Made by a program: the position numbers and the translations under genes. 64,000 nucleotides of DNA from Eubacteriales bacterium (GTDB lineage: Bacteria; Bacillota; Clostridia; Oscillospirales; CAG-272): positions 210,000-273,999 of the forward strand of contig JAZLLY010000016.1 of assembly GCA_045598385.1 (NCBI GenBank). Reading direction: 5' to 3'. How positions within the stretch are numbered: the first letter of the stretch is position 1; every line of letters begins with the position of its first letter. The notes below the pieces were generated by a model that did not search any database, was not told where the DNA came from, and was given only the letters and a program-made list of their open reading frames with translations. Below are positions 8,945 to 56,873 of this stretch, one piece after another.

Positions 8945-9028
8945 TGGTGCGGGAAACGGGAATTGAACCCGTACGGTAAAACCACACGCCCCTCAAACGT
9001 GCGCGTCTGCCAGTTCCGCCACTCCCGC
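8945..9028 (-). tRNA. tRNA-Leu (anticodon GAG), type II with long variable arm, CCA encoded
   Basis: Manual fold: acceptor GCGGGAG/TTCCCGC, anticodon loop TT-GAG-GG, T-arm ACGGG-TTCAATT-CCCGT, 84 nt. Confidence 0.85.
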
Positions 9029-9232: not shown

Positions 9233-9308
9233 AGGGGTATAGCTCAGTTGGTAGAGTACTGGTCTCCAAAACCATGGGTCGTGGGTTCAAGTCCTTCTGC
9301 CCCTGCCA
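9233..9308 (+). tRNA. tRNA-Trp (anticodon CCA), CCA encoded
   Basis: 76 nt. Acceptor AGGGGTA/TGCCCCT and anticodon loop CT-CCA-AA. One T-T mismatch in the T-stem. Confidence 0.85.
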
Positions 9309-9341: not shown

Positions 9342-9344
9342 CAA

Positions 9345-9480
9345 TGATATCCGTTCCTCTGCGGAACGGATGATATATGGCGAAGCCATATGATATCCGC
9401 TTACGCGGATGATATACGCCGAGAGGCGTATAAGGAACGGATATTATATCATGCCGAGCGGACGCGAGGTATATCATGCG
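9345..9480. repeat. ATGATAT-spaced hairpin array
   Basis: The units are TGATAT-CCGTTCC-tctg-CGGAACGG, ATGATAT-ATGGC-gaa-GCCAT, ATGATAT-CCGC-ttac-GCGG and ATGATAT-ACGCC-gaga-GGCGT, followed by degenerate units. Confidence 0.75.
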
Positions 9481-15000: not shown

Positions 15001-15741
15001 CTTTTCTATGCCGAAACCCACAGGAGTGAAAACGGCGAAGACGCCTCGCTTTTCGTCAGGAATCTTGAAAACGTCCAGGGTGACGAACGGGATATCATCA
15101 TCTTCTCGATCGGGTACGCCAGGAACGAAGAGGGAAAAGTCTATGCCAATTTCGGTTCCCTTTCGTCGGAGGGCGGAGAAAACCGACTTAACGTCGCCAT
15201 TACGCGCGCCAAAGAACGGGTGCTCGTGTACACGAGCGTCGATCCGGAGGAGCTCCGTGTTGAAAGCAGTAAATACCGCGGGCCGAAGCTTCTCAAACAA
15301 TATCTTATGTATGCGCGTGCCGTTTCTGCAGGCGACCTTAAGACCGTGAAAAATATACTTGACGGACTTTCGGATGAAAAACCGCAGTCTTCCCTCACGA
15401 ACGACTTTGCCCCCGAGTTCTTTATCCGCGACCGACTCAAAAAACTCGGCTACGACGCCGAACTGTCTCTCGGTGAGAAGTACAACCGTCTTTCTCTCGC
15501 CGTTTATGACAAGGACTGTGACCGCTATCTCGTCGGTGTAGAGCTCGACAGCGACGCTTTCTCCGCTTCCGATTCCGTGCTTGAGCGCGACGTTTCGAAG
15601 CCACGATTCCTCGAGTCGCGCGGATGGCGAGTGATCCGTGTCTGGAGCCGCGACGTTTGGGCTTCTCCGAAACGGGTCGTCCGCACCGTCGTGCAGGCCG
15701 CCGAAAAAGCGAAAAAACAGTATCAGGTACAAAACGATTAA
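12004..15741 (+). CDS. Superfamily-1 (Upf1-like, DUF4011-type) helicase fused to a C-terminal Vsr/DUF559-like endonuclease domain
   Basis: 1245 aa with a GTG start after GGAG. Has Walker A GPPGTGKSQT, motif II VVFDEASQI and motif VI NVAITRAKERV. The C-terminal tail (VGVELDSDAF...RDVSKPRFLESRGWRVIRVWSRDVW) is typical of PD-(D/E)xK DUF559-like modules. Confidence 0.85.
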   Translation: MGKSIYTRYKERLVEIGGKNKCLYLSRLTKNASYDLSRLLEGRKEKSEDFLRFLFSGKESYFSLIEKKDHEAIVDLCGAVPSRGKRAPDLSAETRKTVKKDTEKAVEAEILALKALKREMEDIEKETGRYELYVGYPFVFGTLSQNGKKTPVKAPLLLFPVRLEFPGDGNVEIHHYGTQKIRINPALIFSYLQARRLPSDTLQLEYDDFSDFHSVGDVLSYLSGFHIAIRPFAATGIQSFYRFKDSESAALFLHDTAVLGRFPIANSIYNDYTELEKRKLTNAAIDELLTPRAFKARQLRLKKIRAVRRKKRTETPTFAVRSMDYAQSQVVRKADESGNIVIFGPPGTGKSQTIVNIITDSLVKGKRVLVVSQKKAALDVVFNRLGDLRSKAMYISDEAKDKTSFYRRALEAHESVMGQAADTGGILAEYEELQGKIKSECHTLEEIAAIMNEKRPFGLSLSEMYRSSSMLAKGSPEYALYQRMLSHPEILTLAYKDLSEALCLIRSDDLALSYYHFMTDKEKNPVINFLRSDPDIGTLAEVKGQLTAAARSRRGYFNTAKYPYYRQVLAFYHEIEDAKKAKAIAAITAKTAGGVSRKEVLAAFRATETAMANYLKDYECLSRVLTQDGYLNVIDNILRGNTSYVRFVVDAIDNYLALQNFTKLLDTLGETELAVLNFAYAESKNDKHFSEILGLILPIRIYHEILKYEEQYREKFPTTVNFANASERISELQQRLLVLNAKAAKQSNITAYQKLFRESKESNDYLHQISKQQKYWPIRQTMEHYGKFLLTLFPCFLLSPENVSAVLPLVRNLFDVVVFDEASQIFIENTIPTIYRGKNVIVAGDDKQLRPSANFVRRYLGGDESVTDVSMQAALEVDSLLDLAVSRYDKASLSYHYRSCHSELISFSNRAFYNNCLQIAPNISKNRTISPIVYHKINGSWIDRKNVKEAAAIVAGVKDLLINRKKRETIGIITFNAEQQATIADMLEKEAQKDPAFRTLFYAETHRSENGEDASLFVRNLENVQGDERDIIIFSIGYARNEEGKVYANFGSLSSEGGENRLNVAITRAKERVLVYTSVDPEELRVESSKYRGPKLLKQYLMYARAVSAGDLKTVKNILDGLSDEKPQSSLTNDFAPEFFIRDRLKKLGYDAELSLGEKYNRLSLAVYDKDCDRYLVGVELDSDAFSASDSVLERDVSKPRFLESRGWRVIRVWSRDVWASPKRVVRTVVQAAEKAKKQYQVQND

Positions 15742-37346: not shown

Positions 37347-38075
37347 ATGGAAAACCAAAGCAAAAGATTCTCATTCAGTGAAAAACCTCTTACGACAAAA
37401 ATTGTTTACGCCGTCGTTTTGCTAACATTAGTTGTCAGTGCGATCGTCATCGGTATCGTTGCCGCCAAGAACAAGAACGCGACACCCGCGAGCGGCGATA
37501 AAAATATCGTTATGGAAGCACCGGATCCCGGCACCGACTCCGGCACCGATTCCGGCAAAAGCGGTAACACCGACACAGAACCCGGCACGGATGAAAAAGA
37601 ACAGAACAAAGAAACTCTTTCTTTTGTATCTCCCTGCGTCGGAACGATCATGACGGAACACAGTCTTACCGTCCCCGTTTTCTCGGATACGCTCGGCGAA
37701 TGGCGCGTTCACAGCGGCATTGACATTGCCACCGAGGACGGCGCACCCGTTTACGCCTCGGCGGCAGGCGTCGTCTCCGCCGTTTACAGCGATCCTCTTA
37801 TGGGAATGACGGTGGAGATCACGCACAGCAACAACTTCAAGACCGTCTATTCCAACCTGCAATCGACGCTGGCAAGCGCGATCACCGTCGGCGCCGAAGT
37901 CAAAAGCGGTGACCTGATCGGCAACGTCGGCGACACCTCAATCAAAGAACTCGCCGAAGAACCGCACCTGCACTTCGGCATGAAGATCAAGGACGCCGCC
38001 GTCAACCCGCTCGACTACCTCACCGACAGCGCGAAAGAAGCATCCCTCGGTGAAAAAACGGTAGTCTCCGCCTAA
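37347..38075 (+). CDS. M23 family metallopeptidase (membrane anchored)
   Basis: N-terminal TM helix, low-complexity linker, then HSGIDIA and PHLHFGM zinc-ligand motifs. Confidence 0.8.
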   Translation: MENQSKRFSFSEKPLTTKIVYAVVLLTLVVSAIVIGIVAAKNKNATPASGDKNIVMEAPDPGTDSGTDSGKSGNTDTEPGTDEKEQNKETLSFVSPCVGTIMTEHSLTVPVFSDTLGEWRVHSGIDIATEDGAPVYASAAGVVSAVYSDPLMGMTVEITHSNNFKTVYSNLQSTLASAITVGAEVKSGDLIGNVGDTSIKELAEEPHLHFGMKIKDAAVNPLDYLTDSAKEASLGEKTVVSA

Positions 38076-38116
38076 AAGCGCAAGCGCTTGGCGAGAGCAC
38101 TCCGGCGCTCTCGCAG

Positions 38117-38158
38117 TTATGAGTTAAGAGTTCAGAGTTATGAGTTGATGAGTCTTTG
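38117..38158. repeat. Contiguous heptamer repeat AGTTNNG x5 (reverse complement of CATAACT)
   Basis: AGTTATG AGTTAAG AGTTCAG AGTTATG AGTTGATG, preceded by the hairpin GCGAGAGC...GCTCTCGC. Confidence 0.75.
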
Positions 38159-38200
38159 GGAAACAAACCGAAAAACGATCGGGAATGCTAAAAAACAAGT

Positions 38201-38239
38201 CAAACGAAAAGAGCGTGAAATTCACGCTCTTTTCGTTTG
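38201..38239. terminator. 17-bp-stem palindrome between convergent genes (terminator; T-run on the minus-strand side)
   Basis: CAAACGAAAAGAGCGTG-aaatt-CACGCTCTTTTCGTTTG. Confidence 0.7.
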
Positions 38240-38261
38240 CCCGGAACGCAAACCATAACTT

Positions 38262-38470
38262 TTCGCTTCGCGAAAATCATAACTGCGCCAAAGGCACATC
38301 ATAACTTTGCGGCAAAGCCGCAAATCATAACTCTTCCTAAAATCCGCGCTTCGCGCGATATGGAATCTACGCGAAGCGTAGCATGGAATCCGCACAAAGT
38401 GCGGTATGGAATCCGGAATGGAATCCGGTATGGCATCCGTTGCAAGGCGGTATGAAGTCCGCCGCCGGCA
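38262..38470. repeat. Hairpin array: CATAACT-spaced units followed by (T)ATGGAATC-spaced units
   Basis: CATAACT precedes each of TTTTCGC-ttc-GCGAAAA, GCGCC-aaa-GGCAC and TTGCGG-caaa-GCCGCAA. ATGGAATC precedes CTACGC-gaa-GCGTAG, CCGCAC-aaa-GTGCGG and further units. The array lies in the 3' UTR position of the LRR gene. Confidence 0.8.
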
Positions 38471-38478
38471 TTTGCAGA

Positions 38479-41400
38479 TTATTTGCTGATATCCCCGTCG
38501 GAACAGTGAATCTTGTAAGAACTGGTATTGTAATTGTAAATCCATCTTGATCCCTTTGAGATCGCGTTCCACTGCGCCTTTGTTCCGGTGAAAGTGATGC
38601 TTGCAAGCCCACTGCAATCGTAGAACGCCCAATCGCCGATGCTCGTGACGCTCGACGGGATCGTGATGCTTGTAAGCCCACTGCAACCGGAGAACGCATA
38701 AGTGCCGATGCTCGTGACGCTCGACGGGATCGTGATGCTTGTAAGTCTTGTGCAATACCAGAACGCATCCATAGTGATGCCTTTAGTCCCGTCACGAAGC
38801 GTGACATTAATCAAAGCAGTATCGCAGCCGATCACCCATGTATCTACATAAGAAACGCCATCGACGGTTTCGATACAGGGACAACCGTAGAACGCATAAC
38901 CGCCGATGCTCGTTACGCTCGACGGGATCGTGATGCTCGTCAGACTCGAGCAACGGGAGAACGCATAACTGCCGATGCTCGTGACGCTATCCGGAATCGT
39001 AACGCTCGTCAGGTTCGTGCAATTCTCGAACGCATAACTGCCGATGCCCTTAACGCTCGACGGGATCGTGATGCTTGTCAGGCTCGAGCAATCATAGAAC
39101 GCATAATTGCCGATGCTCGTGACGCTCGACGGGATCGTGATACTCGTCAGTTTCGAGCAATAATAGAACGCATACTGATAGATCTCATAATTCTTTCCGC
39201 TCGGGGACTTTTCGGGAAGTATCAGATCGGTTTGTGTTCCCTTGTAACCAATAAGATAACTGTTCGTTCCGTCTTCATAGAAGAGATAACCGTCTTCTTC
39301 GGAAAGATAGGTTTCGCTCCCGTCGGTGATGATACGTTTGGCGTAATAACCGACGTCGCCGTTAGATGAACTTCCGGCGGTGATCGTAAGCGACGAATGG
39401 TTGCGGACCTCGATCAGTTTGTAACAACCGTAGAACGCTTCACTGCCGATGCTCGTGACGCTCGACGGGATCGTGATGCTCGTAAGACCTCTGCAACCGG
39501 AGAACGCATAATAGCCGATGCTCGTGACGCTCGACGGGATCGTGATGCTTGTAAGACCGCTGCAACCCTCGAACGCCGAATCGCCGATGCTCGTGACTCT
39601 ATCCGGGATCGTGATGCTCGTCAGACTCGAGCAACTGCAAAACGCCTGAGCGCCGATGCTCTTGACGCTCGACGGGATCGTGACGCTTGTCAGGCTCGTG
39701 CAATCCCGGAACGCATAATCGCCGATGCTTGTGACGCCCTCGGGAATCACAAGATCCGTGATCAAAACGTTATTGAGATAGAGATAATGTGCATACTCTA
39801 AAGGATTCGCACCCCAATTACCAAAGGATATGCCGCACCATTTGGCAAGATCCGTGATATATACCGCGCTCAAGTTCCAACAACCTTCAAACGCATTATC
39901 GCCGACGGCTGTGACGCCGGACGACATAGTGATACTCGTCACATTGGTACGGAAATAAAATGCGTAGTCATAGATTTTGTAAGTTTTTCCGCTAGGAGAA
40001 ACATCGGGGAGTATCAGGTCGGTTTCGCTGTCTTCATAATTCAGAAGAAAACTGTCAGTCCCGTCTTCATAAAAGATATAGTCGCCAACTGATGAGATAA
40101 AACTGTCGCCTTCATCGGTAATAATACGTTTAGCATAATATCCGACGCCTCCGTTGTCGGGGCTTCCGGCAACAATGTCAAGGGACGAAAGATTGCATAC
40201 TTCGATCAGTTTGTAGCAACCGGAGAAAGCCCCCTCACCGATGCTCTTGATACAAGCGGGAATCGTGATATGGGTAATTGAACTGAAAACGAACGCGCCC
40301 ATGGCGATACTCGTTACGCTTCCGTCATCGGGGATCACGCCGCAACATCCCCCGGCGATCAAAGTTTTGCTCGCGGTTTCGATCAGACAATTACCGGCAC
40401 TGTGATAAACCGTATTGCCGGGATCGACCGTGAAGTCCAAAAGACCGGGACAGAAATAAAACGCTAATTCTTCGATCTGCTCAACGTTTTTCGGAATCGT
40501 GATATGCGATAGACCGTAACATTCACCGAATGCCGCGAATCCGATGCTCGTGACGCTTTCCGGAATTGTGAAAGACGTAAGATCGTGGCAGCAGTAAAAC
40601 GCGCCTCCACCTATGATCGTGCATTGACTGTTTTTGGCAAAGGTGACGCTTTTTAGTCCCTCACAATCCGAAAAAGCTTGCTCGCCGATGATTCTGACAC
40701 TCGACGGGATCGTAACGCTCTTCAGGGTTTCATCCTGATCAAAAGCAAACGCTTCGTCGGCGATTTCAACGACGCCCTCGGGAATATCAATATCTGTCAA
40801 AGTTTTTCCGTAATCCGTCAGTCCCATAACGACGGTTTTCGTCTCGTCAAAAATGAAAACGTCAAAGATGCTGACGGCCCGGAAAGTGGCAGTATAAGTT
40901 GCATTTCCGGTAACGGCTGAAAGCGGCTTGTCCCAGCCCGAAAAGACGAACATGGTTTCTCCGTCCGTCGGCTTTGTCGGCGTATTTCCGTCATAGGAGG
41001 GGACATCTCCCGTTTTCAGGGAATCCGTCTTCAGTACGGTGCCGTCGTAGTTTTTCCACGCGACGGTATAACTTTTGTTGTCCTTTTTATTCTTCGTGTA
41101 ATGCGCCTTGTAGGTCACGTCGTGATTGACCGGCGAAAACGTCGGCGTCCAGCCGGAAAACGTATAGAAGAACTTGTCTTCCGCGGCTCTCTGCGGCTCC
41201 GCCCCTTTATAAGACGGCATCTCGCCCTCTTTTACCGTTTCCGTCATCAGCAAGGTGCCGTCAAAATCTTCCCACGTGACGGTATAGGTGTTGACGTCTT
41301 CTTTTTCGGTAATGCCTAATTTTTCTCCGATCTCATCGAAAAGGTCGGATATCCCGACTTTGTCCCCGATGCCTTGGAAAAGACCGGTGATTTGCCCGGA

Positions 41401-41487
41401 TTCCGCATCGCACGCTGAAAATGCAAAAAGCACCGTCAGAAGCGACAATGCCAGCAAAAAGATTTTGAGCGCGGTTTTCTTAAACAT
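38479..41487 (-). CDS. Surface lipoprotein: N-terminal Listeria-Bacteroides (Flg_new/InlB B-type) repeats plus many BspA-type leucine-rich repeats
   Basis: Lipobox LFAFSAC. Repeats of the form YTVTWEDFDGT...FSGWTP. More than 15 units of about 23 aa resemble LTSITIPSSVTSIGxYAFxxCSS. The ATG at 41487 follows GGAG. The DNA carries matching repeats of about 70 bp. Confidence 0.85.
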   Translation of the reverse strand: MFKKTALKIFLLALSLLTVLFAFSACDAESGQITGLFQGIGDKVGISDLFDEIGEKLGITEKEDVNTYTVTWEDFDGTLLMTETVKEGEMPSYKGAEPQRAAEDKFFYTFSGWTPTFSPVNHDVTYKAHYTKNKKDNKSYTVAWKNYDGTVLKTDSLKTGDVPSYDGNTPTKPTDGETMFVFSGWDKPLSAVTGNATYTATFRAVSIFDVFIFDETKTVVMGLTDYGKTLTDIDIPEGVVEIADEAFAFDQDETLKSVTIPSSVRIIGEQAFSDCEGLKSVTFAKNSQCTIIGGGAFYCCHDLTSFTIPESVTSIGFAAFGECYGLSHITIPKNVEQIEELAFYFCPGLLDFTVDPGNTVYHSAGNCLIETASKTLIAGGCCGVIPDDGSVTSIAMGAFVFSSITHITIPACIKSIGEGAFSGCYKLIEVCNLSSLDIVAGSPDNGGVGYYAKRIITDEGDSFISSVGDYIFYEDGTDSFLLNYEDSETDLILPDVSPSGKTYKIYDYAFYFRTNVTSITMSSGVTAVGDNAFEGCWNLSAVYITDLAKWCGISFGNWGANPLEYAHYLYLNNVLITDLVIPEGVTSIGDYAFRDCTSLTSVTIPSSVKSIGAQAFCSCSSLTSITIPDRVTSIGDSAFEGCSGLTSITIPSSVTSIGYYAFSGCRGLTSITIPSSVTSIGSEAFYGCYKLIEVRNHSSLTITAGSSSNGDVGYYAKRIITDGSETYLSEEDGYLFYEDGTNSYLIGYKGTQTDLILPEKSPSGKNYEIYQYAFYYCSKLTSITIPSSVTSIGNYAFYDCSSLTSITIPSSVKGIGSYAFENCTNLTSVTIPDSVTSIGSYAFSRCSSLTSITIPSSVTSIGGYAFYGCPCIETVDGVSYVDTWVIGCDTALINVTLRDGTKGITMDAFWYCTRLTSITIPSSVTSIGTYAFSGCSGLTSITIPSSVTSIGDWAFYDCSGLASITFTGTKAQWNAISKGSRWIYNYNTSSYKIHCSDGDISK

Positions 41488-41532
41488 ATGTTTCTCCTTT
41501 GGCTTTCGCCGTCGTCTTATTTTGTCCACTTA

Positions 41533-41707
41533 TTGTGAAAATAGGTGAACAATAATACGATTTTATCATATCACGCGCGCGGAAAATTGTCAATGATAAT
41601 TTTATTTTACGCTAATCCAAATATATTTTTAGAAAAATGCTTCCTTTACGTCCTTTTTTTCGTTTATCCCGCGAAAAATGCCCGTTTTTGTTCACCTATT
41701 TTCACAA
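41533..41707. promoter_or_regulatory. Invertible-promoter-like element (inverton candidate), promoter currently facing the LRR lipoprotein gene (ON)
   Basis: Perfect 20-bp inverted repeats: TTGTGAAAATAGGTGAACAA (41533-41552) and TTGTTCACCTATTTTCACAA (41688-41707). They flank 135 bp. The insert carries, on the minus strand, TTGACA (41593-41588), a 17-nt spacer and TGaTATGAT (-10 at 41570-41565). Confidence 0.65.
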
Positions 41708-41750
41708 CAGATGAACATTTCCGGGGCGGTTTTTTAGATCCCGGGAAGCA

Positions 41751-41790
41751 AAAAGGGAAAAGAACGGACGTTCTCTTCCCTTTAATTTTT
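41751..41790. terminator. Terminator insulating the 41.5-kb switch from upstream nfnAB transcription
   Basis: GGGAAAAGAAC-ggac-GTTCTCTTCCC with A/T runs on both sides. On the minus strand it is followed by TTTTTGC. Confidence 0.65.
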
Positions 41791-41820
41791 GTATTGTTTT
41801 TTTACAATTTCCGCCATCGC

Positions 41821-41947
41821 CGCCTCGCTCTGCGAGCGAACGATGCGTTTCGCACACGAAACGCATCTCATAACTTTGCGGCAGCGCCGCAAATCATAAC
41901 TGTGCCGTAGGTACACCATAACTTGCCCGAAGGGCAATCATAACTGA
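41821..41947. repeat. CATAACT-spaced hairpin array (same orientation as 38262-38335)
   Basis: Starts with CGCTC-tgc-GAGCG and ATGCGTTTCG-caca-CGAAACGCAT. Then CATAACT precedes each of TTGCGG-cagc-GCCGCAA, GTGCC-gta-GGTAC and TGCCC-gaa-GGGCA. Confidence 0.8.
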
Positions 41948-41979
41948 TAAGAGCCGGGGAAAGTCCGGCTCTTTGGTCT

Positions 41980-42047
41980 GCGCAAAAAGCGCACGTTTTC
42001 AAACGCAAAAAGCGCACGTTTTCAAACGCAATAAGCGCGCGTTTTAC
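41980..42047. repeat. 23-bp tandem direct repeat x3 abutting the nfnB-like stop codon
   Basis: GCGCAAAAAGCGCACGTTTTCAA / ACGCAAAAAGCGCACGTTTTCAA / ACGCAATAAGCGCGCGTTTTAC. Confidence 0.8.
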
Positions 42048-43453
42048 TTTAAGAACTCATTGATCGCCTTTGCAGCCACCTTCCCCGCTCCCATCGCGGA
42101 GATGACAGTCGCGGCGCCCGTCACGGCGTCGCCGCCGGCGTAAACGCCGTCTTTGGTGGTTTTTCCGGTCTCTTCTTCTACGATGATACCGCCGTGACGG
42201 TTTACGTCAAGCCCTGCGGTCGTGGATTTGATCAGCGGGTTCGGGGACGTGCCGATCGCGATAATGACGGTATCGGCGTCCAGCACGAATTCACTACCCT
42301 CAACGGGAACGGGACGGCGGCGTCCGCGCTCGTCCGGCTCGCCGAGTTCCATACGGATACAGCGAAGACCGACGACACATCCGTTCATCGGATCGCGGGG
42401 ATCGTCCTTATTCTCGTAGCCGAGGACTTCGGTCGGATTGTTCAGAAGCAGGAATCTGACGCCCTCCTCCATCGCGTGTTCGACCTCCTCTTTTCTCGCG
42501 GGGAGTTCCTCCATGGAACGGCGATAAACGATCGACACCGATTCGGCACCGAGGCGAAGCGCCGTTCTCGCGGCGTCCATCGCGACGTTTCCGCCTCCGA
42601 CGACCACGACGTTCCCGCCTTTTTTGATCGGGGTTTCGGCATCGTCTTTATACGCGCCCATGAGGTTGCTTCTCGTCAGAAATTCGTTGGCGGAATACAC
42701 GCCTTTCAGACTTTCTCCGGGGATATTCATGAAGTTCGGAAGTCCGGCGCCGGAGCCGATGAACACGGCTTCATAACCCATGCCGAAGAGTTCGTCGATC
42801 GTCAGCGTTTTTCCGATGATCATATTCGTGGCAATTTCCACGCCGAGTTTTTCGAGATTTTCGACTTCTTTCGCGACGATCGCTTTCGGAAGACGAAACT
42901 CGGGGATGCCGTAAACGAGAACGCCGCCGGCTTTGTGAAGTGCCTCAAAGACCGTGACGCTGTGCCCTGCTCTGGCGAGATCGCCGGCGCAGGTAAGTCC
43001 GGAGGGACCGGAGCCGATCACGGCAACTTTATGTCCCGTTTTTTCGGGGAGCGTAACGCTCGACGTATCGTGAGAATTATGGTAATCGGCGACGAAACGT
43101 TCAAGACGTCCGATGCCGACGGGCTCGCCCTTGATCCCTCTGACGCAACGGGATTCGCATTGTGTTTCCTGCGGGCAGACGCGTCCGCAGACTGCGGGGA
43201 GCGACGAGGACTGTAAAATGACGCGGTAAGCACCCTCAAAATCGCACTCTTTGATTTTTGCGATGAATTCGGGAATACGGATATTGACGGGGCAACCGCC
43301 GACACAAGGCATATTCTTGCAGGACAGGCAGCGGAGCGCTTCGTCAACCGCCGTCGCCTCATCGTAACCGATAGCGACTTCCGAGAAATTGCGGGCGCGG
43401 ACCTTCGGATCCTGCGTCGGCATCGGATTCTTTTTGAGACTCATATTCGGCAT
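42044..43453 (-). CDS. NADPH-dependent glutamate synthase small-subunit-like oxidoreductase (NfnB/GltD family)
   Basis: 469 aa. N-terminal Fe-S Cys clusters (CLSCKNMPC..GCP; CGRVCPQETQCESRC) and two Rossmann motifs (VAVIGSGPSGL; VVVVGGGNVAMD). Confidence 0.85.
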   Translation of the reverse strand: MPNMSLKKNPMPTQDPKVRARNFSEVAIGYDEATAVDEALRCLSCKNMPCVGGCPVNIRIPEFIAKIKECDFEGAYRVILQSSSLPAVCGRVCPQETQCESRCVRGIKGEPVGIGRLERFVADYHNSHDTSSVTLPEKTGHKVAVIGSGPSGLTCAGDLARAGHSVTVFEALHKAGGVLVYGIPEFRLPKAIVAKEVENLEKLGVEIATNMIIGKTLTIDELFGMGYEAVFIGSGAGLPNFMNIPGESLKGVYSANEFLTRSNLMGAYKDDAETPIKKGGNVVVVGGGNVAMDAARTALRLGAESVSIVYRRSMEELPARKEEVEHAMEEGVRFLLLNNPTEVLGYENKDDPRDPMNGCVVGLRCIRMELGEPDERGRRRPVPVEGSEFVLDADTVIIAIGTSPNPLIKSTTAGLDVNRHGGIIVEEETGKTTKDGVYAGGDAVTGAATVISAMGAGKVAAKAINEFLK

Positions 43454-45533: not shown

Positions 45534-45972
45534 GACTGTTAAAAAAGTGCAGACCGAAAAAGAAAAAATGACTGTTATACCGTTTTTTCCGCTTTCTTCT
45601 GTAATACAAGGTTGAAATCCTGACGGATTTCATCGGTTTTGATTTGATTTTCCTTTTTCTACCGTCGAAAGACGCCTCTGTCGTACGCTTGTACGCCGAC
45701 GTGTCGCCTTTCGGCGCTTCTGCCTCTTTTTTATCCAGCCCCATCAGACTGTTAAAAAAGTGCAGACCGAAAAAGGAAAAATGACTGTTATACCGTTTTT
45801 TTCCGCTTTCTTCTGTAATAAATGGTTGAAATCCTGACGGATTTCTCCGGTTTTGATTTGTATTTCCTTTTTCTACCGTCGAAAGACGCCTCTGTCGTAC
45901 GCTTGTACGCCGACGTGTCGCCTTTCGGCGCTTCTGCCACTTTTTTATCCAGCCCCAAATGCTGTTAAAAAA
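45534..45972. repeat. Non-coding 213-bp tandem direct repeat (two full copies plus the start of a third)
   Basis: Copies begin GACTGTTAAAAAAGTGCAGACCG at 45534 and 45747. GCTGTTAAAAAA recurs at 45961. I count about ten differences between copies by manual alignment. Confidence 0.85.
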
Positions 45973-45992
45973 AGACGCCGGTTTTCGGCGTC
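45966..45992 (-). terminator. Terminator of the NAD(P)H-hydrate dehydratase gene
   Basis: Minus strand: GACGCCG-aaaac-CGGCGTC followed by TTTTTTT. Confidence 0.8.
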
Positions 45993-49177: not shown

Positions 49178-50353
49178 TCATGTTTTGTTGTCATTTTCTC
49201 TTAAAAACGACAGAAGAGACGACTTTTCGTTCTTCACTTTCCCATCCATGACGGCAAAGAGAAGTTTTTCGAGCGCATCGCCGAGCGCGGTGCCGTCAAA
49301 GCCGGCGGACAAAAGATCCCCGCCCCGCAGGGCAAGATCGGAAAGTTTCGTCGGGGGATTCTCTGCCATGAGAGCGTCGAAAGCCGAAAGGCGGGATCCG
49401 CCGTCCGAAAGATCCGACAGAAGAAGAAAATCGCGGGCTCTTTCTTTTCCGAGGGAAAAGCAAAGGCGCAGATACCCGCCGCGCGAAAGTTCGCCTACGT
49501 CCTCCGTTCCGAGGATCGCAACGCCGTCGTCGAGAAACTTTTTCTCGGTTTTTAGGCGTCGGCACATCGCGGCAAAATGCGCCGCGCGGTCTTTGTCGTT
49601 CCAGAGGAGTTCGAGTGTACGGTGTTTATCGTCCTCCGTGCCGAACGCTTCGGGCACGGTAAGGGGGACACCCGGGAAAAGAAACGCGAATACTTGAGAG
49701 TATTCCCGCAGAACGGCGGCGGGGTTCTTCCCCGCCCGCGCTTTTCGCCACTCTGCATAGATCCGCTCCGCCGATACGTCGGCGAGAAGTTCGTAACACG
49801 AAAGCACGGCGGCTTTCGTCTTTTCTTCGACCGAAAAGCCGAGCACCGAAGCAAAACGCAGGGCGCGGAGGATACGCAGGGCGTCCTCGCGGAAGCGGAC
49901 GGACGGCTCGCCGACACAGCGGATCCGCCGTTTTTCGATATCTTCCCTGCCTCCGAAAAGGTCGGTGATCCCAAAAGTCGGATGATAGCACATCGCGTTT
50001 ACGGTAAAATCGCGGCGGGAGAGGTCGGACGAAAGATCACGGGTAAACGTCACGTTTTCGGGATGACGGTGATCGGCATAATCCCCGTCCGTCCGATAGG
50101 TCGTGACCTCGACGGGTTCGCCTTCAACGATGACAGTCAGAGTACCGTGCTTCCGTCCCGTTTCGATCACCTTGAAATCCCCGAAAACGCGGAGCATTTC
50201 CTCCGGCGTCGCCGAGGTGGTCATGTCAAAATCGTGAGGAGAAAGGCCGAGCAGAAAATCGCGGACGGAACCGCCGACGACGTCGGCACGGAATCCGGCA
50301 TTTTTCAGGGCTTCAAAAACGGCGCGGGCGCCGTTTGAAAGACGCATATCCAT
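49178..50353 (-). CDS. cca: CCA tRNA nucleotidyltransferase
   Basis: The nucleotidyltransferase motif GGSVRDFLLG...DFDMTT is present. The ATG at 50353 follows AAAGGAGAGAGG. The track start at 50374 is a TTG. Confidence 0.8.
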   Translation of the reverse strand: MDMRLSNGARAVFEALKNAGFRADVVGGSVRDFLLGLSPHDFDMTTSATPEEMLRVFGDFKVIETGRKHGTLTVIVEGEPVEVTTYRTDGDYADHRHPENVTFTRDLSSDLSRRDFTVNAMCYHPTFGITDLFGGREDIEKRRIRCVGEPSVRFREDALRILRALRFASVLGFSVEEKTKAAVLSCYELLADVSAERIYAEWRKARAGKNPAAVLREYSQVFAFLFPGVPLTVPEAFGTEDDKHRTLELLWNDKDRAAHFAAMCRRLKTEKKFLDDGVAILGTEDVGELSRGGYLRLCFSLGKERARDFLLLSDLSDGGSRLSAFDALMAENPPTKLSDLALRGGDLLSAGFDGTALGDALEKLLFAVMDGKVKNEKSSLLSFLRENDNKT

Positions 50354-50481
50354 ATCCTCTCTCCTTTCTGTCAAAATATTTTATCATATATCCTCTCTCT
50401 TGTCAACGAAACGCCGTGATTTTCATTGACACGGAAGACCTTTTCTGCTATACTGGGAACGATGTTATTATGAGGTGCTAT

Positions 50482-51384
50482 ATGAAACTTTCATCGACAA
50501 CGTCTTCGCTTTTCGCCACGTTCGGCGAAGAAGACGGCATCAAGGTCGCAAAGGAGGTCGGTTTCGACGCTCTCGACCTCAATCTCATCCTGCCGACGCC
50601 GCCGCTCTACGAGAAAGACGGCTTTTTGAAATACGCCGACCGTCTCCGCAACGCCGCGGAAAAGGCGGGGATGCCGTTCAACCAGGCGCACGCACCGTTC
50701 CCGACCATGAAATTCAAAAACGGCGACACCGCAAAGCCGGACGAGGAATATAACGCGATCACGAGAAAACGCATCGAGGACGCGATCCTTTGCACCGGGC
50801 GGATCGGTGCCGAACAGATCGTCATCCATCCCGTCGATTTTCTCGGCAGAGCCGACGCCAAAGAGAGAAACATCGAGATCTACCGCTCCTTTGCCCCGAT
50901 CGCCGAGGAAGCGGGCGTGAAGATCGCTCTTGAAAATATGTGGGGCTACCGCCCCGGCACGCGGCACATCGTCCCGAACGTTTGCAGCACCGGCGAAGAA
51001 CTCGGTGCCTATTACGACGCGCTCCCGTCCTCGCGCTTTTCGGTCTGTCTTGATCTCGGGCACTCGGAACTGGTGAACGAAACGGCGGAAGCCGCGATCC
51101 TCGCGCTCGGTCACGACCGTCTGCACGCGCTCCACGTCCACGACAACGACAGTATGACCGACGGGCACACGATCCCCTATTTCGGCGTCATGAACTGGGA
51201 GAGGATCACGAAAGCCCTCGCCGATATCGACTACGGCGGCGACTTCACCTTTGAGGTCAACGGCGCCGCGTTTCAGCGGCTCGAAAAAGAGCCGAAAACG
51301 GCGTATTTCGCCTACGCCCTCCTGGCGCAAACAGGAAAGACGCTCATTGAAAAAATAGAAAAATACAAAGAAAAAAGACAATAA
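50482..51384 (+). CDS. Sugar phosphate isomerase/epimerase (xylose isomerase-like TIM barrel)
   Basis: 300 aa. The motifs IVIHP, IALENM and HVHDN are typical of the AP endonuclease 2/xylose isomerase-like fold. The ATG at 50482 follows GAGGTG. Confidence 0.8.
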   Translation: MKLSSTTSSLFATFGEEDGIKVAKEVGFDALDLNLILPTPPLYEKDGFLKYADRLRNAAEKAGMPFNQAHAPFPTMKFKNGDTAKPDEEYNAITRKRIEDAILCTGRIGAEQIVIHPVDFLGRADAKERNIEIYRSFAPIAEEAGVKIALENMWGYRPGTRHIVPNVCSTGEELGAYYDALPSSRFSVCLDLGHSELVNETAEAAILALGHDRLHALHVHDNDSMTDGHTIPYFGVMNWERITKALADIDYGGDFTFEVNGAAFQRLEKEPKTAYFAYALLAQTGKTLIEKIEKYKEKRQ

Positions 51385-51402
51385 TCGACAGAAAAAATAT
51401 AA
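51236..51402. repeat. Direct repeat copy A (3' end of the isomerase gene plus 18 nt downstream)
   Basis: The 167 bp match 56680-56846 with 4 mismatches by manual alignment. Confidence 0.9.
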
Positions 51403-51514: not shown

Positions 51515-54500
51515 TTATCCGATCTCGGAAACGGTCCATACGCCGTTATCCGTATCTTCAACGGACTGATAATTTTCATCGAAAAGGTAAGAAGTCAGGT
51601 CGTCGGTATTCGGGCCTGCCGGGTTGAAGCCGTGGAAGGTACCGCCTTTGACTTTGATGCTTGCGTTTGCTTCATCGCCATTCTTGATATTCAGTACCCA
51701 ATACCGACCGTTGTATTTCGCATCACTGCTGAACTCACCGCCTTCGATCACGATCTGTCCGACTTTTAGCGCGTAGATCGTCGAATTTCCTTTTCCTCCG
51801 TTATCAGCGCCGACGGTGAAGGTTCCACCTTTAATCGTAACGGTACCGTTCTCTACGCTAACTGCTTTGCTGTCATATCCGTTCTTTCCTGTAAACGTTC
51901 CGCCGGAGATCGTAATCTTCATCTTCTCATTGAACGTCGTGGGATTCACCGTGTCGATGACCGTCAAGGCATAAATGCCGGTGAACGAGCCACCGCTGAT
52001 CGTTACATTGATCTCACAAGCGGTTGTATGCTGTGAAATAGCAAGGGCGGCGCCTTTAACGGTCGTTCCGTTTCCGTTTGCAGTTGCGCTGTATTCCGTA
52101 GCATTGGAAACAAGGGATCCGCCGGTGATATTCACCGTTCCCGCTCTGACTTCCACGGGAGTGGGCGCCGTGATGGTTCCACCGGAAATATTCAGCGTTC
52201 CGTCCTGCGGATGATAAATACCAGTTCCCGCAGAAGTGATGGAACCGCCGGTCACGTTGATCATCGTTCCCCAATACGCTTCCGAACCGTTACCGACGAT
52301 ACCGTAAGCCGCCGTCGTCGTAATGGTGGCTGCCGTCGTCAGAGTCGGTTTTGTATCCGTAACGATGGAAATGGCATCGACGACGGAATCAATTATGAAC
52401 GTATCTTCCAACGTCACGTTACCCTGCTTCACATAAATCGCCGCATAAGCGTCAGAATTCGTGACTTTCAGCGTGCCGTTTCTTATGGTTAACGTCATAT
52501 TTCTTCCAACGCAAATGGCGCCAACGTCACCGGATTTTGTCGAAGTGATCGTATGACCGTTCAAATCCAAAATAACATTCTTTACCAATACAGTGAATGT
52601 AATTTGAGAATTGACGGTAACGTCATCTAACAGTTTCCAAGTACCGTCTGAAGCCATAGAAGTGATGGAATCTTTATAAGTTGTCGTTTCGCCATTGGTA
52701 ACCGAAGCAATCGCTTTTTTGACCGTAAGCGTTCCATTGGCAAAAGTAATGTCATAGTTTGCCGCTTCCAGTCCGGAGACCGTAATGACGTAAGTTCCGG
52801 CAACATTCTGTGTTTTGTCATAATCGCCAAAACCATAAACGGCATCTCCGGTCAGAACGGTTTTGGTTTCACCGTTGACAAATCCCGTTGCGGTATAGGC
52901 GCCGCTCGGGGTGTTTCCGGCAACAATGGTTTTTTTGGATGCCGCTACGGTGAGAGGTGCTTTTGCTATGACAAAATCAAAGGTCAAGTCGTCGGAAGAT
53001 CCGTCGTCCCATGCATAATTGGTTTTGTCTTTGAGGGCAACGGTAATGACACTCGTGCCCGCACCGGTCTTCGTTAAATCACCGGTAATGGTATAAAGGA
53101 GGTCATTTGCCGCAAGCGTATAGGTCTGTTCCAGACCGGTGTACGTAAACTCCGTTGTGTCTGCGTTCGGTTTAGCGACTTTGATCGGGGTTTCAGCTTC
53201 TTCCTTCACGCCACAACCTTCGCGCTGACAAACGCGAGACTTTTTACCATGTGCCTCGTAGGTTGCATCAACGTCGATCGTCCAGTCACCAAAATCATGA
53301 CCGAGTTTCGATCCGGTATCGACTACGGTGTCGGGTTCGGTACAATTGTCGTTGTCGCACTTTGCAGTCTTGGTACCGTCATTCAAACAGGTCGCGTCAT
53401 TGTTAGATTCGTAATTTGTGAAAGAGTGTCCGAGTTTCGAGCCGGTATTGACTACGGTGTCGGTTGCGGTACAATTGTCGCACGTTGCAGTCTTGGTACC
53501 GTCAGCCGTGCAGGTCGCGTTACCGTCGGAGACATAAGTCGTGAACGAGTGATCAAGCGCGGGGATTTCTTCCGTTTCTTCATATCCGCAGGCACAAACG
53601 TGTTTTTTAAGTCCTTTGGTCGTGCAGGTCGCGGGAGTCACGGGTTCCCATGCGCTAAAGGTATGCTCGGCTTTACCGGCGAGCACGCCATGTCCGCAGG
53701 TATCGGCGTGCCAGTGGTAGGTCTCGTTACACGTCCAATCTTCCGAATAGGTGTGGTCGGTCTTTTCGGTTTCGCGCGTCTCTTCATATCCGCAGACGAT
53801 GCAAGAACGTTCTTGCAGTCCTTTAGTCGAGCAGGTCGCTTCTTTTCCTTCCACGTCAGTCCACTTGCCGAACATGTGATTGCCAACATCGGCAAACACG
53901 TAATCACCGCAGGTCGCGGCACGCCAGTGCTGCTCTTCGTTGGACGACCATTCTTCGTCGTAGGTATGAGCACCCTCTTTTACTTCGCCGGACGCGAAGG
54001 TCTCGGTGCCTTTCGCTCCGCAGACGCAGGAGTAGTAATACTGCGCTTTCGCGGAGCAGGTCGCTTCGCTCGCCAGATAAACTTCGGTTGCTACTTCTTG
54101 ATCGTAGGTATGATCGAGCACCGGGATCACAGTCACATCGGTGACTTCGTCACAACCCTCACGCAGACAATGGTGAGATTTCGAGCCCGCGGTCTTGCAG
54201 GTTGCTTCGGTATCAATCGTCCAAATGTCAGAGTAGTTGTGATCGAGTGCGTCGATATCCTGTGTTTCTTCGTATCCGCAGACGGCGCACACATGTTTTT
54301 CGCTGCCCTTTTCGGTGCAGTTGGGTTCATTTACGGTCTCCCAATCGCCGTATTCGTGTCCGAGTTCGTCGATCACAGTCACATCGGTGACTTCATCACA
54401 ACCGTCGCGCAGACAATGGCGGGATTTCGAGCCCGCGGTCGTGCAGGTCGCGGGAAGATCAATCTTGAATTCCGACGAGAAGTTATGATCAAGCGCGTCG

Positions 54501-56404
54501 ATATCGCGCGTTTCTTGATATCCGCAGACGACACAAGCACGGACCTGCGTTCCTTTGTCCTCACAGGTTGCGGGAGTCTCGGTAGTCCAAAGCCCGAACG
54601 TATGCCCGTCTTTATCGGCGACCCCGCCATGTCCGCAGATAGCGGCGTGATAATGCTCGTTTTCGTTATAAGTCCACTCTTCCGAATAGGTGTGGTCGGT
54701 CTTTTCGGTTTTGCGCGTCTCTTCATATCCGCAGACGATGCAAGAACGTTTTTGCTCTCCCTCATTCGAGCAGGTCGCTTCTTTTCCTTCCACGTCAGTC
54801 CACTTGCTGAACGTGTGAGCGGATTCACCCGAGATCTCCGTTACATGCTCACAGGAAGCGTCGTGCCAGTGGTGGGTCTCGTTATACGTCCAATCTTCCG
54901 AATAGGTGTGGTCGGTCTTTTCGGTTTCGCGCGTTTCTTTATATCCGCAGACGCGGCAAGAACGTTCTTGCAGTCCTTTAGTCGAGCAGGTCGCTTCTTT
55001 TCCTTCCACGTCAGTCCACAAACCGAAAATATGCTCGGTTTTGCTCGTGATAAGTTCGATATGTCCGCAGGTCGCGGCGTGCCAATGCTCGGTATCGTTA
55101 CACGTCCATTCTTCTGAAAATGCATGGTCGATCATTTCGACTTCGCGCGTTTCTTCATACCCGCAGACGGTGCAAAGACGGTGTTCAACACCTTTCTTTG
55201 AGCAGGTCGGAGCCGTGACGGTCGTCCAGTCGCCGAAGGTGTGGACACCTTTATCCACGAAAAGATCGGTATGCTCGCAGGTAGCGGCGTGCCAATGCTC
55301 GGTTTTGCTGGACGACCACGTTTCGGCATACGTATGGTCGATCATATCCATATCGCGGGTTTCTTCGTATCCGCAGGCGGTGCAAAGACGGTGCTCGAGC
55401 CCTTTGCTTGCGCAAGTCGGAGCCGTCACAGTCTCCCATTCGCCGAACGTATGTTCCGCTTTATCCGCGAAAAGATCGGTATGCTCGCAGGTAGCGGCGT
55501 GCCAATGCTCGGTCTCATCATACGTCCAGGTTTCGGCGTACGTATGGTCGATCATATCCATTTCGCGGGTTTTTTCATATCCGCAAACCGTGCAAAAACT
55601 ATGCTCGACGCCTTTGCTTCCGCAAGTCGGAGCCGTCACAGTCTCCCACGTTTCGAAAATGTGTTCCGCTTTATCCGCGATGAGGTAGGAATGTTCGCAA
55701 GTGGCAAAGCGCAGATGCTCGGTTTCACTGTACATCCACGTATCGGAGTACGTATGCGGAAGCATTTCGATCTCACGCGTTCCTTCGTATCCGCAAACGG
55801 TGCAATAACTGTGTTCAAGTCCTTTGCTTCCGCAAGTCGGTTCGGTCACAGTCTCCCATTCGCCGAACGTATGTTCCTCTTTATCCGCGAAAAGATCGGT
55901 ATGCCCGCAGGTCGCAGCGTGCCAATGCTCGGTTTCGCTGGACGACCACGTTTTGGCGTAAGTGTGCGCCAATTTACTCGTCTGTCTGGTTTCTTCCAAT
56001 CCGCAGACGGTACAAACGCGGTGTTCAAGACCTTTTTCTCCGCAGGTCGCGGCCGTCACGGTTTCCCATGCACCGAAAGTGTGCACGTTATGCTCCGGGA
56101 CAAATTTCGCATATACCTTTATGCTTTTTGTGAAAGTTTCGTCGGCGAGAGAATCTGCTGAAAAGGGCGATTCCCACGTACCTTCGTCAAGGTACCAACC
56201 GTCAAAAGTATAGCCGTCTTTGACGGGATCCGCCATAATTTCGATTGTTTCATTTCCGCTTGTCCTGATGATATCGCGGACTTCTCCGTCCACGACAAAT
56301 TCGATCGCGTATTCCACTTTTCCGCACGCGGCAAAAGCAAAAATCGCAATCAGACAAGACAAAGTCAGCGCAAGGATCTTTCCAATGTTCTTTTTCATGC
56401 TCAA
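51515..56404 (-). CDS. Giant surface lipoprotein: Flg_new-type repeat, about 12-13 Cys/His-rich modules, MBG-like domain and C-terminal beta-helix-like repeats
   Basis: 1629 aa. Lipobox IFAFAAC. One YAIEFVVDG...GYTFDGWY repeat. Modules of about 57-70 aa follow the pattern H-TFG-W..V..ATC..KG.....C.VCGYEETR....DHTY...W....T.HWH..TC.H. It also contains an APLTV...NYDITF..GTLTV segment. GGAGG lies 8 nt before the ATG. Confidence 0.85.
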   Translation of the reverse strand: MSMKKNIGKILALTLSCLIAIFAFAACGKVEYAIEFVVDGEVRDIIRTSGNETIEIMADPVKDGYTFDGWYLDEGTWESPFSADSLADETFTKSIKVYAKFVPEHNVHTFGAWETVTAATCGEKGLEHRVCTVCGLEETRQTSKLAHTYAKTWSSSETEHWHAATCGHTDLFADKEEHTFGEWETVTEPTCGSKGLEHSYCTVCGYEGTREIEMLPHTYSDTWMYSETEHLRFATCEHSYLIADKAEHIFETWETVTAPTCGSKGVEHSFCTVCGYEKTREMDMIDHTYAETWTYDETEHWHAATCEHTDLFADKAEHTFGEWETVTAPTCASKGLEHRLCTACGYEETRDMDMIDHTYAETWSSSKTEHWHAATCEHTDLFVDKGVHTFGDWTTVTAPTCSKKGVEHRLCTVCGYEETREVEMIDHAFSEEWTCNDTEHWHAATCGHIELITSKTEHIFGLWTDVEGKEATCSTKGLQERSCRVCGYKETRETEKTDHTYSEDWTYNETHHWHDASCEHVTEISGESAHTFSKWTDVEGKEATCSNEGEQKRSCIVCGYEETRKTEKTDHTYSEEWTYNENEHYHAAICGHGGVADKDGHTFGLWTTETPATCEDKGTQVRACVVCGYQETRDIDALDHNFSSEFKIDLPATCTTAGSKSRHCLRDGCDEVTDVTVIDELGHEYGDWETVNEPNCTEKGSEKHVCAVCGYEETQDIDALDHNYSDIWTIDTEATCKTAGSKSHHCLREGCDEVTDVTVIPVLDHTYDQEVATEVYLASEATCSAKAQYYYSCVCGAKGTETFASGEVKEGAHTYDEEWSSNEEQHWRAATCGDYVFADVGNHMFGKWTDVEGKEATCSTKGLQERSCIVCGYEETRETEKTDHTYSEDWTCNETYHWHADTCGHGVLAGKAEHTFSAWEPVTPATCTTKGLKKHVCACGYEETEEIPALDHSFTTYVSDGNATCTADGTKTATCDNCTATDTVVNTGSKLGHSFTNYESNNDATCLNDGTKTAKCDNDNCTEPDTVVDTGSKLGHDFGDWTIDVDATYEAHGKKSRVCQREGCGVKEEAETPIKVAKPNADTTEFTYTGLEQTYTLAANDLLYTITGDLTKTGAGTSVITVALKDKTNYAWDDGSSDDLTFDFVIAKAPLTVAASKKTIVAGNTPSGAYTATGFVNGETKTVLTGDAVYGFGDYDKTQNVAGTYVITVSGLEAANYDITFANGTLTVKKAIASVTNGETTTYKDSITSMASDGTWKLLDDVTVNSQITFTVLVKNVILDLNGHTITSTKSGDVGAICVGRNMTLTIRNGTLKVTNSDAYAAIYVKQGNVTLEDTFIIDSVVDAISIVTDTKPTLTTAATITTTAAYGIVGNGSEAYWGTMINVTGGSITSAGTGIYHPQDGTLNISGGTITAPTPVEVRAGTVNITGGSLVSNATEYSATANGNGTTVKGAALAISQHTTACEINVTISGGSFTGIYALTVIDTVNPTTFNEKMKITISGGTFTGKNGYDSKAVSVENGTVTIKGGTFTVGADNGGKGNSTIYALKVGQIVIEGGEFSSDAKYNGRYWVLNIKNGDEANASIKVKGGTFHGFNPAGPNTDDLTSYLFDENYQSVEDTDNGVWTVSEIG

Positions 56405-56445
56405 AACCTCCGACCTTATTTTTTATCAAATTAAGTTCATATACT

Positions 56446-56611
56446 ATGGTAATAGATGAACAAACAAGTCGCATTAACGCCAAAATGGGCGTATCATATA
56501 AGCGAAAAACATAGCGGAAGAAAAAAATTACTCTTCCTATCATATTTATATTGACAAGTTTTTTCGATTATGATATCATGTTTATATCATAACGTTCATC
56601 TATTACCATAA
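56446..56611. promoter_or_regulatory. Invertible-promoter-like element (inverton candidate), promoter currently facing away from the giant lipoprotein gene (OFF)
   Basis: Perfect 17-bp inverted repeats: TATGGTAATAGATGAAC (56446-56462) and GTTCATCTATTACCATA (56595-56611). They flank 132 bp. The insert carries, on the plus strand, TTGACA (56552-56557), a 17-nt spacer and TGaTATCAT (-10 at 56575-56580). Confidence 0.65.
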
Positions 56612-56641
56612 TAGGCGGATTTTTTGCATAGTCGAAAATAC

Positions 56642-56675
56642 AAAAGGAAACAGGAAAAAACTGTTTCCTTTTTTT
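56642..56675. terminator. Bidirectional terminator on the distal side of the 56.5-kb switch
   Basis: AAAGGAAACAG-gaaaaaa-CTGTTTCCTTT followed by TTTT. On the minus strand the hairpin is also followed by TTTTGTATTTT. Confidence 0.7.
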
Positions 56676-56679
56676 GAGC

Positions 56680-56828
56680 GCGGCGACTTCACCTTTGAGG
56701 TCAACGGCGCCGCGTTCCAGCGGCTCGAAAAAGAGGCGAAAACGGCGTATTTCGCCTACGCCCTCCCGGCGCAAACAGGAAAGACGCTCATCGAAAAAAT
56801 AGAAAAATACAAAGAAAAAAGACAATAA
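56680..56828 (+). pseudogene. Orphan 3' fragment (last ~49 codons) of the sugar phosphate isomerase gene
   Basis: It encodes GDFTFEVNGAAFQRLEKEAKTAYFAYALPAQTGKTLIEKIEKYKEKRQ-stop, nearly identical to the end of 50482-51384. There is no upstream coding sequence or start codon. Confidence 0.85.
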
Positions 56829-56846
56829 TCGACAGAAAAAATATAA
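56680..56846. repeat. Direct repeat copy B
   Basis: Matches 51236-51402 (167 bp, 4 mismatches). Confidence 0.9.
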
Positions 56847-56873
56847 GGGAACAGAAAAATCTGTTCCCTTTTT
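56835..56873. terminator. Terminator hairpin following repeat copy B
   Basis: AGGGAACAG-aaaaat-CTGTTCCCT followed by TTTT. Confidence 0.65.

Follow-up and report, generated by a model that had tools for sequence, protein, structure and literature searches.

In the 64-kb window (the whole stretch of DNA that was analyzed), a gene for a 1627-aa probable surface lipoprotein lies on the minus strand, between a TIM-barrel gene with an AP_endonuc_2 domain and tsf. Its product has a signal peptide, with the cysteine within a lipobox-like FAAC motif. Besides a Listeria-Bacteroides repeat domain, it has an MBG_2 domain, a C-terminal region rich in Gly and Thr, and a tandem series of about 14 Cys-rich repeats. 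Each repeat is about 70 aa long (DNA period, 210 to 216 nt), and the repeats match the Ribosomal_L32p profile in its zinc-ribbon part. The reading frame is unbroken over its 4.9 kb. A ribosome binding site, GGAGG, is found at 56408 to 56412, and the ATG at 56398, which starts 9 nt downstream, is most plausibly the start codon. The first-pass annotation had placed the start at an ATG at 56404 and given a product of 1629 aa. Position 56404 is actually an in-frame TTG, merely 3 nt from the GGAGG, and the frame of 1629 codons yields 1627 aa when it is started at ATG 56398. The lipoprotein forms a singleton in a collection of 5.8 billion clustered proteins, where its next homologue is 32% identical. 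Exact-protein lookups with the lipoprotein (both possible starts) and with EF-Ts, for further assemblies of this organism, returned no record.

Upstream of the lipoprotein gene, a 17-nt inverted repeat, TATGGTAATAGATGAAC at 56445 to 56461 and its complement at 56594 to 56610, encloses a gap of exactly 132 nt. There are no mismatches between the arms, and they grow to 20 nt with one mismatch (56442 to 56461 and 56594 to 56613). The repeat search thus agrees with the first-pass annotation on perfect 17-bp inverted repeats around 132 bp, and it shifts the repeat and promoter coordinates, which had been 1 nt too high. The chance expectation of the 17-mer is 0.07 per window with 3 mismatches permitted. 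In the 64-kb window, only the 56.5-kb and 41.5-kb positions have perfect inverted repeats with arms of 14 nt or more and a gap of 50 to 400 nt, and 30 shuffles gave none.

Comparison with the 41.5-kb repeat and with relatives defined each end of the 56.5-kb element as a 27-bp site with a 10-7-10 layout. This layout consists of the half-site GTTCAYCTAT, a 7-nt spacer, and an inverted half-site (Table 1). The inner half-site together with the spacer is exactly the 17-nt perfect repeat. The 132-bp segment between the arms encodes no gene. A hairpin within the segment may act as an insulator of the promoter. We found no Rfam families at the 56.5-kb and 41.5-kb switches. Elsewhere in the window, an Rfam match to the Gut-1 RNA is present at 9342 to 9420 (53.7 bits; gathering score, 50), and tRNA genes are nearby at 8948 to 9028 and 9233 to 9305.

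Table 1. Features of the 56.5-kb and 41.5-kb loci (positions in the window)
Feature	Position	Strand	Remarks
Left copy of direct repeat	51236-51402	+	True 3' end of the TIM-barrel gene (50335-51384)
Right copy of direct repeat ("orphan fragment")	56680-56846	+	Duplicated 3' end of the TIM-barrel gene
Putatively switch-controlled gene, 1627-aa probable surface lipoprotein	51515-56398	-	
Gene-proximal site	56435-56461		Repeat search, half-site scan, family alignment
Gene-proximal site, outer half-site GTTCATATAC	56435-56444		2/10 mismatches vs GTTCAYCTAT
Gene-proximal site, spacer TATGGTA	56445-56451		
Gene-proximal site, inner half-site ATAGATGAAC	56452-56461		
Putative invertible segment, 132 bp, OFF orientation in assembly	56462-56593		Between perfect 17-nt arms; homologous segment inverted in L006 vs L016/L025
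Hairpin GGAAGAAAAAAATTACTCTTCC within segment	56516-56537		Terminator-like match, minus strand; directly upstream of the -35 and an A+T-rich tract
Extended -10 sigma-70-type promoter	56551-56579	+	Directed away from the lipoprotein gene
Gene-distal site	56594-56620		Repeat search, half-site scan, family alignment
Gene-distal site, inner half-site GTTCATCTAT	56594-56603		
Gene-distal site, spacer TACCATA	56604-56610		Exact reverse complement of the proximal spacer
Gene-distal site, degenerate outer half-site ATAGGCGGAT	56611-56620		3/10 mismatches
Intrinsic terminator	56642-56675	+	12-bp stem, 7-nt loop; hairpin 56642-56672, T-run to 56675; fold z-score, -4.0
Ancestral bidirectional terminator, tsf/TIM-barrel gene	56845-56870		Aligns with the single terminator of relative L018
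BspA-type LRR lipoprotein gene, 1002 aa	ATG 41487, stop 38479	-	
Sister switch, ON	41524-41716		
Sister switch, site 1, GTCCACTTAT-TGTGAAA-ATAGGTGAAC	41524-41550		
Sister promoter, TTGACA-17-TGaTATGAT	41593-41565	-	11/12 with TG; faces the LRR lipoprotein gene
Sister switch, site 2, GTTCACCTAT-TTTCACA-ACAGATGAAC	41690-41716		
Terminator-like hairpin with T-rich tail, far side of sister switch	41755-41790	+	Counterpart of 56642-56675

The promoter inside the segment is composed, on the plus strand, of TTGACA (56551 to 56556), 17 nt, TG (56571 to 56572), and TATCAT (56574 to 56579). A consensus scan found 11 of 12 consensus positions plus the TG extension, and the -10 element ends 14 nt from the neighboring half-site. 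Transcription from the promoter in this OFF orientation is expected to start near 56586. About 55 nt past the gene-distal site, the intrinsic terminator faces the promoter. Two earlier observations were borne out here, namely the TTGACA, 17-nt spacer, and TGaTATCAT facing away from the gene, and the terminator at 56642 to 56675 into which this promoter fires, where a hairpin and a T-run are indeed present. In the OFF state, transcription is predicted to stop at 56675 after about 90 nt. On the minus strand, the same terminator would also shield the switch from tsf read-through. There are three gene-strand hairpins between tsf and the lipoprotein gene (56870 to 56845, 56672 to 56642, and 56537 to 56516). 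Therefore, read-through from tsf is unlikely to stand in for a promoter.

We then flipped the segment (56462 to 56593) virtually. The -10 element moved to 56476 to 56481, which leaves 14 nt to the proximal half-site and 77 nt to the ATG. After such an inversion, the lipoprotein mRNA is predicted to start near 56469 on the minus strand and to have a leader of about 70 nt. The first-pass annotation had foreseen this ON-like layout, which stands, but its numbers (-10 at about 56477 to 56482, 15 nt from the repeat, and about 70 nt from the ATG) give way to the values above. It had also seen no convincing other promoter. This is so for the stretch between the proximal site and the ATG, which is only 36 nt of non-promoter sequence. 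However, two weak promoter-like matches are directed toward the gene in the present orientation (56567 to 56539 and 56635 to 56608; 9/12 each). Because of these matches, silence in the OFF state may be incomplete. The lipoprotein gene is predicted to be off in the present orientation.

The sister switch at 41.5 kb has the same module in the opposite state. Its promoter faces the gene, whereas the one at 56.5 kb faces away. The inner half-site and spacer repeats of the sister switch are perfect over 20 nt, and its -10 element ends 14 nt from the neighboring half-site. The distance from the -10 to the ATG is 77 nt in the 41.5-kb switch as found and in the 56.5-kb switch after the virtual flip. 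The earlier statement that the flipped 56.5-kb geometry equals that of the 41.5-kb ON switch is thus correct, with 77 nt and 14 nt in both. In addition, the two window switches share a distance of 53 nt between half-site core and ATG, and each has a terminator in the OFF direction.

To the closest relative found, GCA_002315715.1 (locus L018), EF-Ts is 94% identical and the DNA is about 77% identical, and the gene order is common. The gap between tsf and the TIM-barrel gene is 54 nt with a single terminator in L018, versus 5573 nt in the window. The window holds a 5444-bp insertion, comprising the lipoprotein gene, the switch, and terminators, and this insertion is flanked by a 167-nt direct repeat that is 98% identical. 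The orphan gene fragment that had been noted behind the terminator is therefore real, being a 98% identical 167-nt copy of the 3' end of the TIM-barrel gene. One possibility is that the 5444 bp were acquired through single-crossover integration of a circle. The 41.5-kb cassette also lies at a synteny break, where 3992 nt (38057 to 42048) stand against 623 nt in L018 that hold a small AAA_18 gene. Synteny with L018 therefore indicates that both lipoprotein genes are accessory insertions with their own switch and terminators. Two relatives by EF-Ts (P0124 and P0126) have other synteny and no switch.

The flanks of the 41.5-kb cassette contain short GC-rich hairpin tandem arrays (38110 to 38440 and 41840 to 41946), with CATAACT or ATGGAATC after each. 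These arrays are imperfect direct repeats on both sides of the cassette. Upstream of the cotJA/cotJB/Mn-catalase genes, the intergenic region contains a tandem duplication of about 213 nt (45534 to 45974; 92 to 98% identical) and is about 350 nt longer than its L018 counterpart. Positions 12004 to 15741 encode a 1245-aa protein with DUF4011, an AAA_11/AAA_12 superfamily-1 helicase, and a C-terminal MTES_1575/DUF559 nuclease, which is a defense-like architecture.

The nearest relative lacks the entire lipoprotein cassette, and such an insertion would be in keeping with a miniature transposable element in which the terminal inverted repeats surround an incidental promoter. This element would have inserted in its present orientation, and neither it nor a chance repeat would be a switch. 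We find either scenario barely credible. The repeat is far outside chance expectation. We found no target-site duplication in the sequence flanking 56435 to 56620, and the viral contigs scanned contained no copy and no perfect palindromic site. Furthermore, a related locus, described below, is flipped between identical flanks with its sites kept, which is inversion and not re-insertion.

We searched for further members of the switch family. A metagenome scan with two 11-nt cores gave 13 matches, and only L006 and L014 are family members. The rejected candidates (L002 to L005 and L007 to L013) are mostly long perfect foldbacks or chance repeats, and L013 looks non-bacterial. Both L006 and L014 have perfect 10-7-10 sites at both ends and a TTGACA-17/18-TGTGATATAAT promoter that ends 12 to 13 nt from one site. 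L014 is a 1-kb metagenome contig that holds two family switches (158 to 325 and 840 to 1012), the second copy being more diverged. A genome scan with the promoter and half-site recovered L016, from an Oscillospiraceae MAG. L015 and L017 were rejected as invertons, as each has a lone half-site. A scan of the genome collection that demanded both arms plus part of the outer arm gave no match. We also found no inverted repeat upstream of the best lipoprotein homologue (L001). Therefore, the protein homologues do not carry the switch.

L006 and L016 represent one locus. Both flanks match on opposite strands, whereas the inner 121 nt match on the same strand. Therefore, the segment is inverted between these two independent assemblies. 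A third independent assembly of the locus, L025, was reached via the adjacent ECF-type sigma-factor gene and has the L016 orientation. A fourth contig, L022, starts precisely at the site. In fact, contigs L006, L014, L016, and L022 all terminate at a family element or within a few hundred nt of one, which suggests assembly breaks from mixed orientations. The L006/L016/L025 locus shows directly that the GTTCAYCTAT switch family inverts; the 56.5-kb copy is known in one orientation.

We aligned seven copies (sw1, sw2, L006, L016, L025, L014a, and L014b). The half-sites and the promoter position are conserved, and the filler is A+T rich. A promoter of the type TTGAC-17/18-TGnTATnAT is conserved in all seven, 12 to 15 nt from the site. 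The two spacers of each element are exact reverse complements in 7/7 copies, yet the spacers vary across loci (TACCATA, TTTCACA, TCACATA, TCAAATA, CTGTCGA, and TTGCATA). A terminator in the OFF direction is also present in L016. In the Oscillospiraceae copies, an additional half-site, GTTCATTTAT or GTTCATCTAA, is located inward of the promoter-distal site by about 16 nt (L006, 2135 to 2144; L016, 6858 to 6867; L014, 960 to 969). Neither window switch has this third half-site, which might serve as an accessory site for binding.

Downstream of the Oscillospiraceae switch, the sigma-factor gene has a consensus extended -10 promoter of its own (L025, 545 to 574; also L022, 198 to 227). Therefore, a family switch is not always the sole promoter of its target, and not every member has to work as a plain ON/OFF device. 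At this locus, the invertible promoter apparently adds to a fixed promoter and does not replace it. Most contigs of the sigma-factor cluster P0260 were rejected, since they represent a mobilizable-element paralogue without a switch.

The 10-7-10 palindromes look like operators for a dimeric regulator, and transcription from the promoter to the terminator would yield a defined, stably folded RNA of about 90 nt. A dimeric transcription factor might loop the DNA between the two sites and repress or activate a fixed outward promoter that makes a short RNA, with the lipoprotein gene being driven from elsewhere. We regard this arrangement as highly improbable. An operator pair does not predict that the spacers are reverse complementary within an element and vary between elements. 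It also leaves unexplained the physical inversion of L006 versus L016/L025 and the nucleotide-exact ON geometry after the flip, and another promoter for the lipoprotein gene is not evident.

The site structure points instead to site-specific recombination. Tyrosine recombinases, which share the catalytic signature R-K-H-R-H/W-Y, use two inverted binding arms around an overlap of 6 to 8 bp. Homology between the partners is required in this overlap, and the protein does not read it. Inverted half-sites around a spacer of this length are present at both ends of all seven copies, and the spacer is matched between partners yet free between loci, with six sequences. Spacers that are reverse complementary within an element and different between loci are the signature of a homology-dependent crossover region. 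Because the 7-bp spacers are matched within each element and not conserved between loci, we infer that the enzyme is a tyrosine recombinase. We rejected a serine invertase of the Hin/Gin type. Hin/Gin systems use 26-bp sites (12-2-12) with a conserved center, carry an enhancer in the segment, and have the gene for the invertase inside the segment or next to it. In contrast, the sites here are 27 bp with a variable 7-nt center, the 132-bp segment is gene free, and there is no nearby resolvase-family gene.

Pfam scans of essentially all open reading frames of the 64-kb window revealed no recombinase gene, and none was found beside the family members examined elsewhere. The likeliest arrangement is a distant recombinase that serves several switches, for which RecV of C. 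difficile and Mpi of Bacteroides are precedents. The 56.5-kb element might also be a former switch that is now locked, because its recombinase was lost or its outer half-sites decayed. Such a lock would leave the gene silent for good or make it a passenger in decay. Both outer half-sites at 56.5 kb are indeed degenerate, with 2 and 3 mismatches, whereas those of the Oscillospiraceae copies are perfect. The 56.5-kb copy may flip slowly or be locked. The recombinase-free window is in line with a lost enzyme, and the cassette, as a recent insertion, might have come without a recombinase. However, the window represents 64 kb of a 312-kb contig. The inner half-sites and spacers are perfect over 17 nt at 56.5 kb and 20 nt at 41.5 kb, and the 4.9-kb reading frame is undamaged. 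Moreover, the presence of two family switches in opposite states fits an active shared recombinase encoded elsewhere. On balance, we consider a locked switch unlikely.

We conclude that the 56.5-kb element is very probably a functional inverton, an ON/OFF switch with an internal promoter for the 1627-aa lipoprotein, and that it was assembled in the OFF state. As in other promoter invertons, inverted repeats surround a short segment, and, at the level of sequence, the internal promoter would drive the gene in one orientation only. We propose that the half-sites are bound by a recombinase of the tyrosine type whose gene lies in another part of the genome and that strand exchange inside the 7-bp spacer would flip the segment. 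The flip would place the -10 element 77 nt upstream of the ATG, and the lipoprotein would be expressed. Cells would differ in lipoprotein display as a result (phase variation). The sister switch would control the BspA-type LRR lipoprotein independently, and the unlike spacers would keep the switches of one chromosome from recombining with each other.

A bolder proposal, which we put forward only tentatively, is that these elements form an undescribed inverton family of Clostridia/Oscillospiraceae. This family would have 10-7-10 GTTCAYCTAT sites and an unlinked "master" tyrosine recombinase. In this genome, its members would move as self-contained, insulated cassettes, each made of a switch and a giant lipoprotein gene with a terminator at either end. 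Integration of a cassette into the conserved backbone would leave long direct repeats. If this is true, the cassettes would be portable phase-variable surface-antigen modules, not locally evolved switches.

Phase-variable surface proteins shape the adherence of gut bacteria and their evasion of immunity and phages, and mechanistic knowledge of them comes mostly from Bacteroides, E. coli, and C. difficile. For uncultured Clostridia, the present analysis defines the site consensus as GTTCAYCTAT-N7-ATAGRTGAAC and describes the layout of the promoter. It also shows that sister switches within a single genome can be in opposite states. There is also a consequence for annotation. When the switch is not recognized, the 1627-aa gene seems to be promoter-less and the outward promoter seems to be an orphan. 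The consensus can be used to find such switches, and via them the recombinase, in complete genomes. The phenomenon itself is well known and the biology is unsurprising; what the analysis adds is a precise definition of the site, proof that the segment inverts in situ in relatives, and a cassette-like insertion. In the searchable literature text, to which supplementary inverton tables do not belong, the motif GTTCATCTAT is absent, and motif strings matched unrelated primers only.

The E. coli fimS switch, which is inverted by the tyrosine recombinases FimB and FimE, is similar to the 56.5-kb switch in several ways. It is a short invertible segment that carries the only promoter of a surface-structure gene, its inverted repeats are flanked by imperfect recombinase half-sites, and the direction of the promoter sets the ON or OFF state. 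However, fimS is 314 bp long with 9-bp repeats, and the recombinase genes adjoin the switch. The 56.5-kb segment is 132 bp with 27-bp 10-7-10 sites of unrelated sequence, and it has no adjacent recombinase. In the Vpma/Vsa systems of Mycoplasma, site-specific inversion by a Xer-like recombinase chooses which large surface lipoprotein is expressed (PMC2268961). There, silent genes are moved to a single fixed promoter in a multigene locus that encodes the recombinase, whereas each lipoprotein gene in the window has a private invertible promoter.

Invertons of the gut microbiome, found by PhaseFinder-type surveys, have been sorted into families by repeat motif, and families from Clostridia, including one in Intestinimonas (Oscillospiraceae), are reported to flip (PMC11892184). 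The Bacteroidota PSA-H/Mpi invertons and the Clostridia "group 139" invertons are, like the window switches, intergenic elements with an embedded promoter beside surface-protein genes, and they occur in host-associated bacteria. In that survey, group 139 invertons have a tyrosine recombinase nearly always within 5 kb and inner segments of about 200 to 230 bp (PMC11892184). In contrast, the window has no recombinase and the inner segment is 132 bp.

The RecV switches of C. difficile (cwpV, flgB, cmrRST, and pdcB) comprise several short elements served by one distant tyrosine recombinase (PMC2784873, PMC5903667, PMC9286219). Like the window switches, they belong to the class Clostridia and lie upstream of surface or signaling genes, and cwpV encodes a large cell-surface protein. 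In cwpV and flgB, the promoter is outside the invertible segment and control is exerted after initiation, through a terminator or Rho (PMC2784873, PMC7446863). Unlike these two, the window switches carry the promoter inside the segment. The RecV-type repeats of C. difficile are 21 bp and, to our knowledge, unrelated in sequence to GTTCAYCTAT. In its design, the 56.5-kb element is a classical invertible promoter, as in fimS and the promoter invertons of Bacteroides and Akkermansia. Taxonomically, its nearest counterparts are the C. difficile RecV switches and the Clostridia inverton groups of defined-community surveys (PMC11892184).
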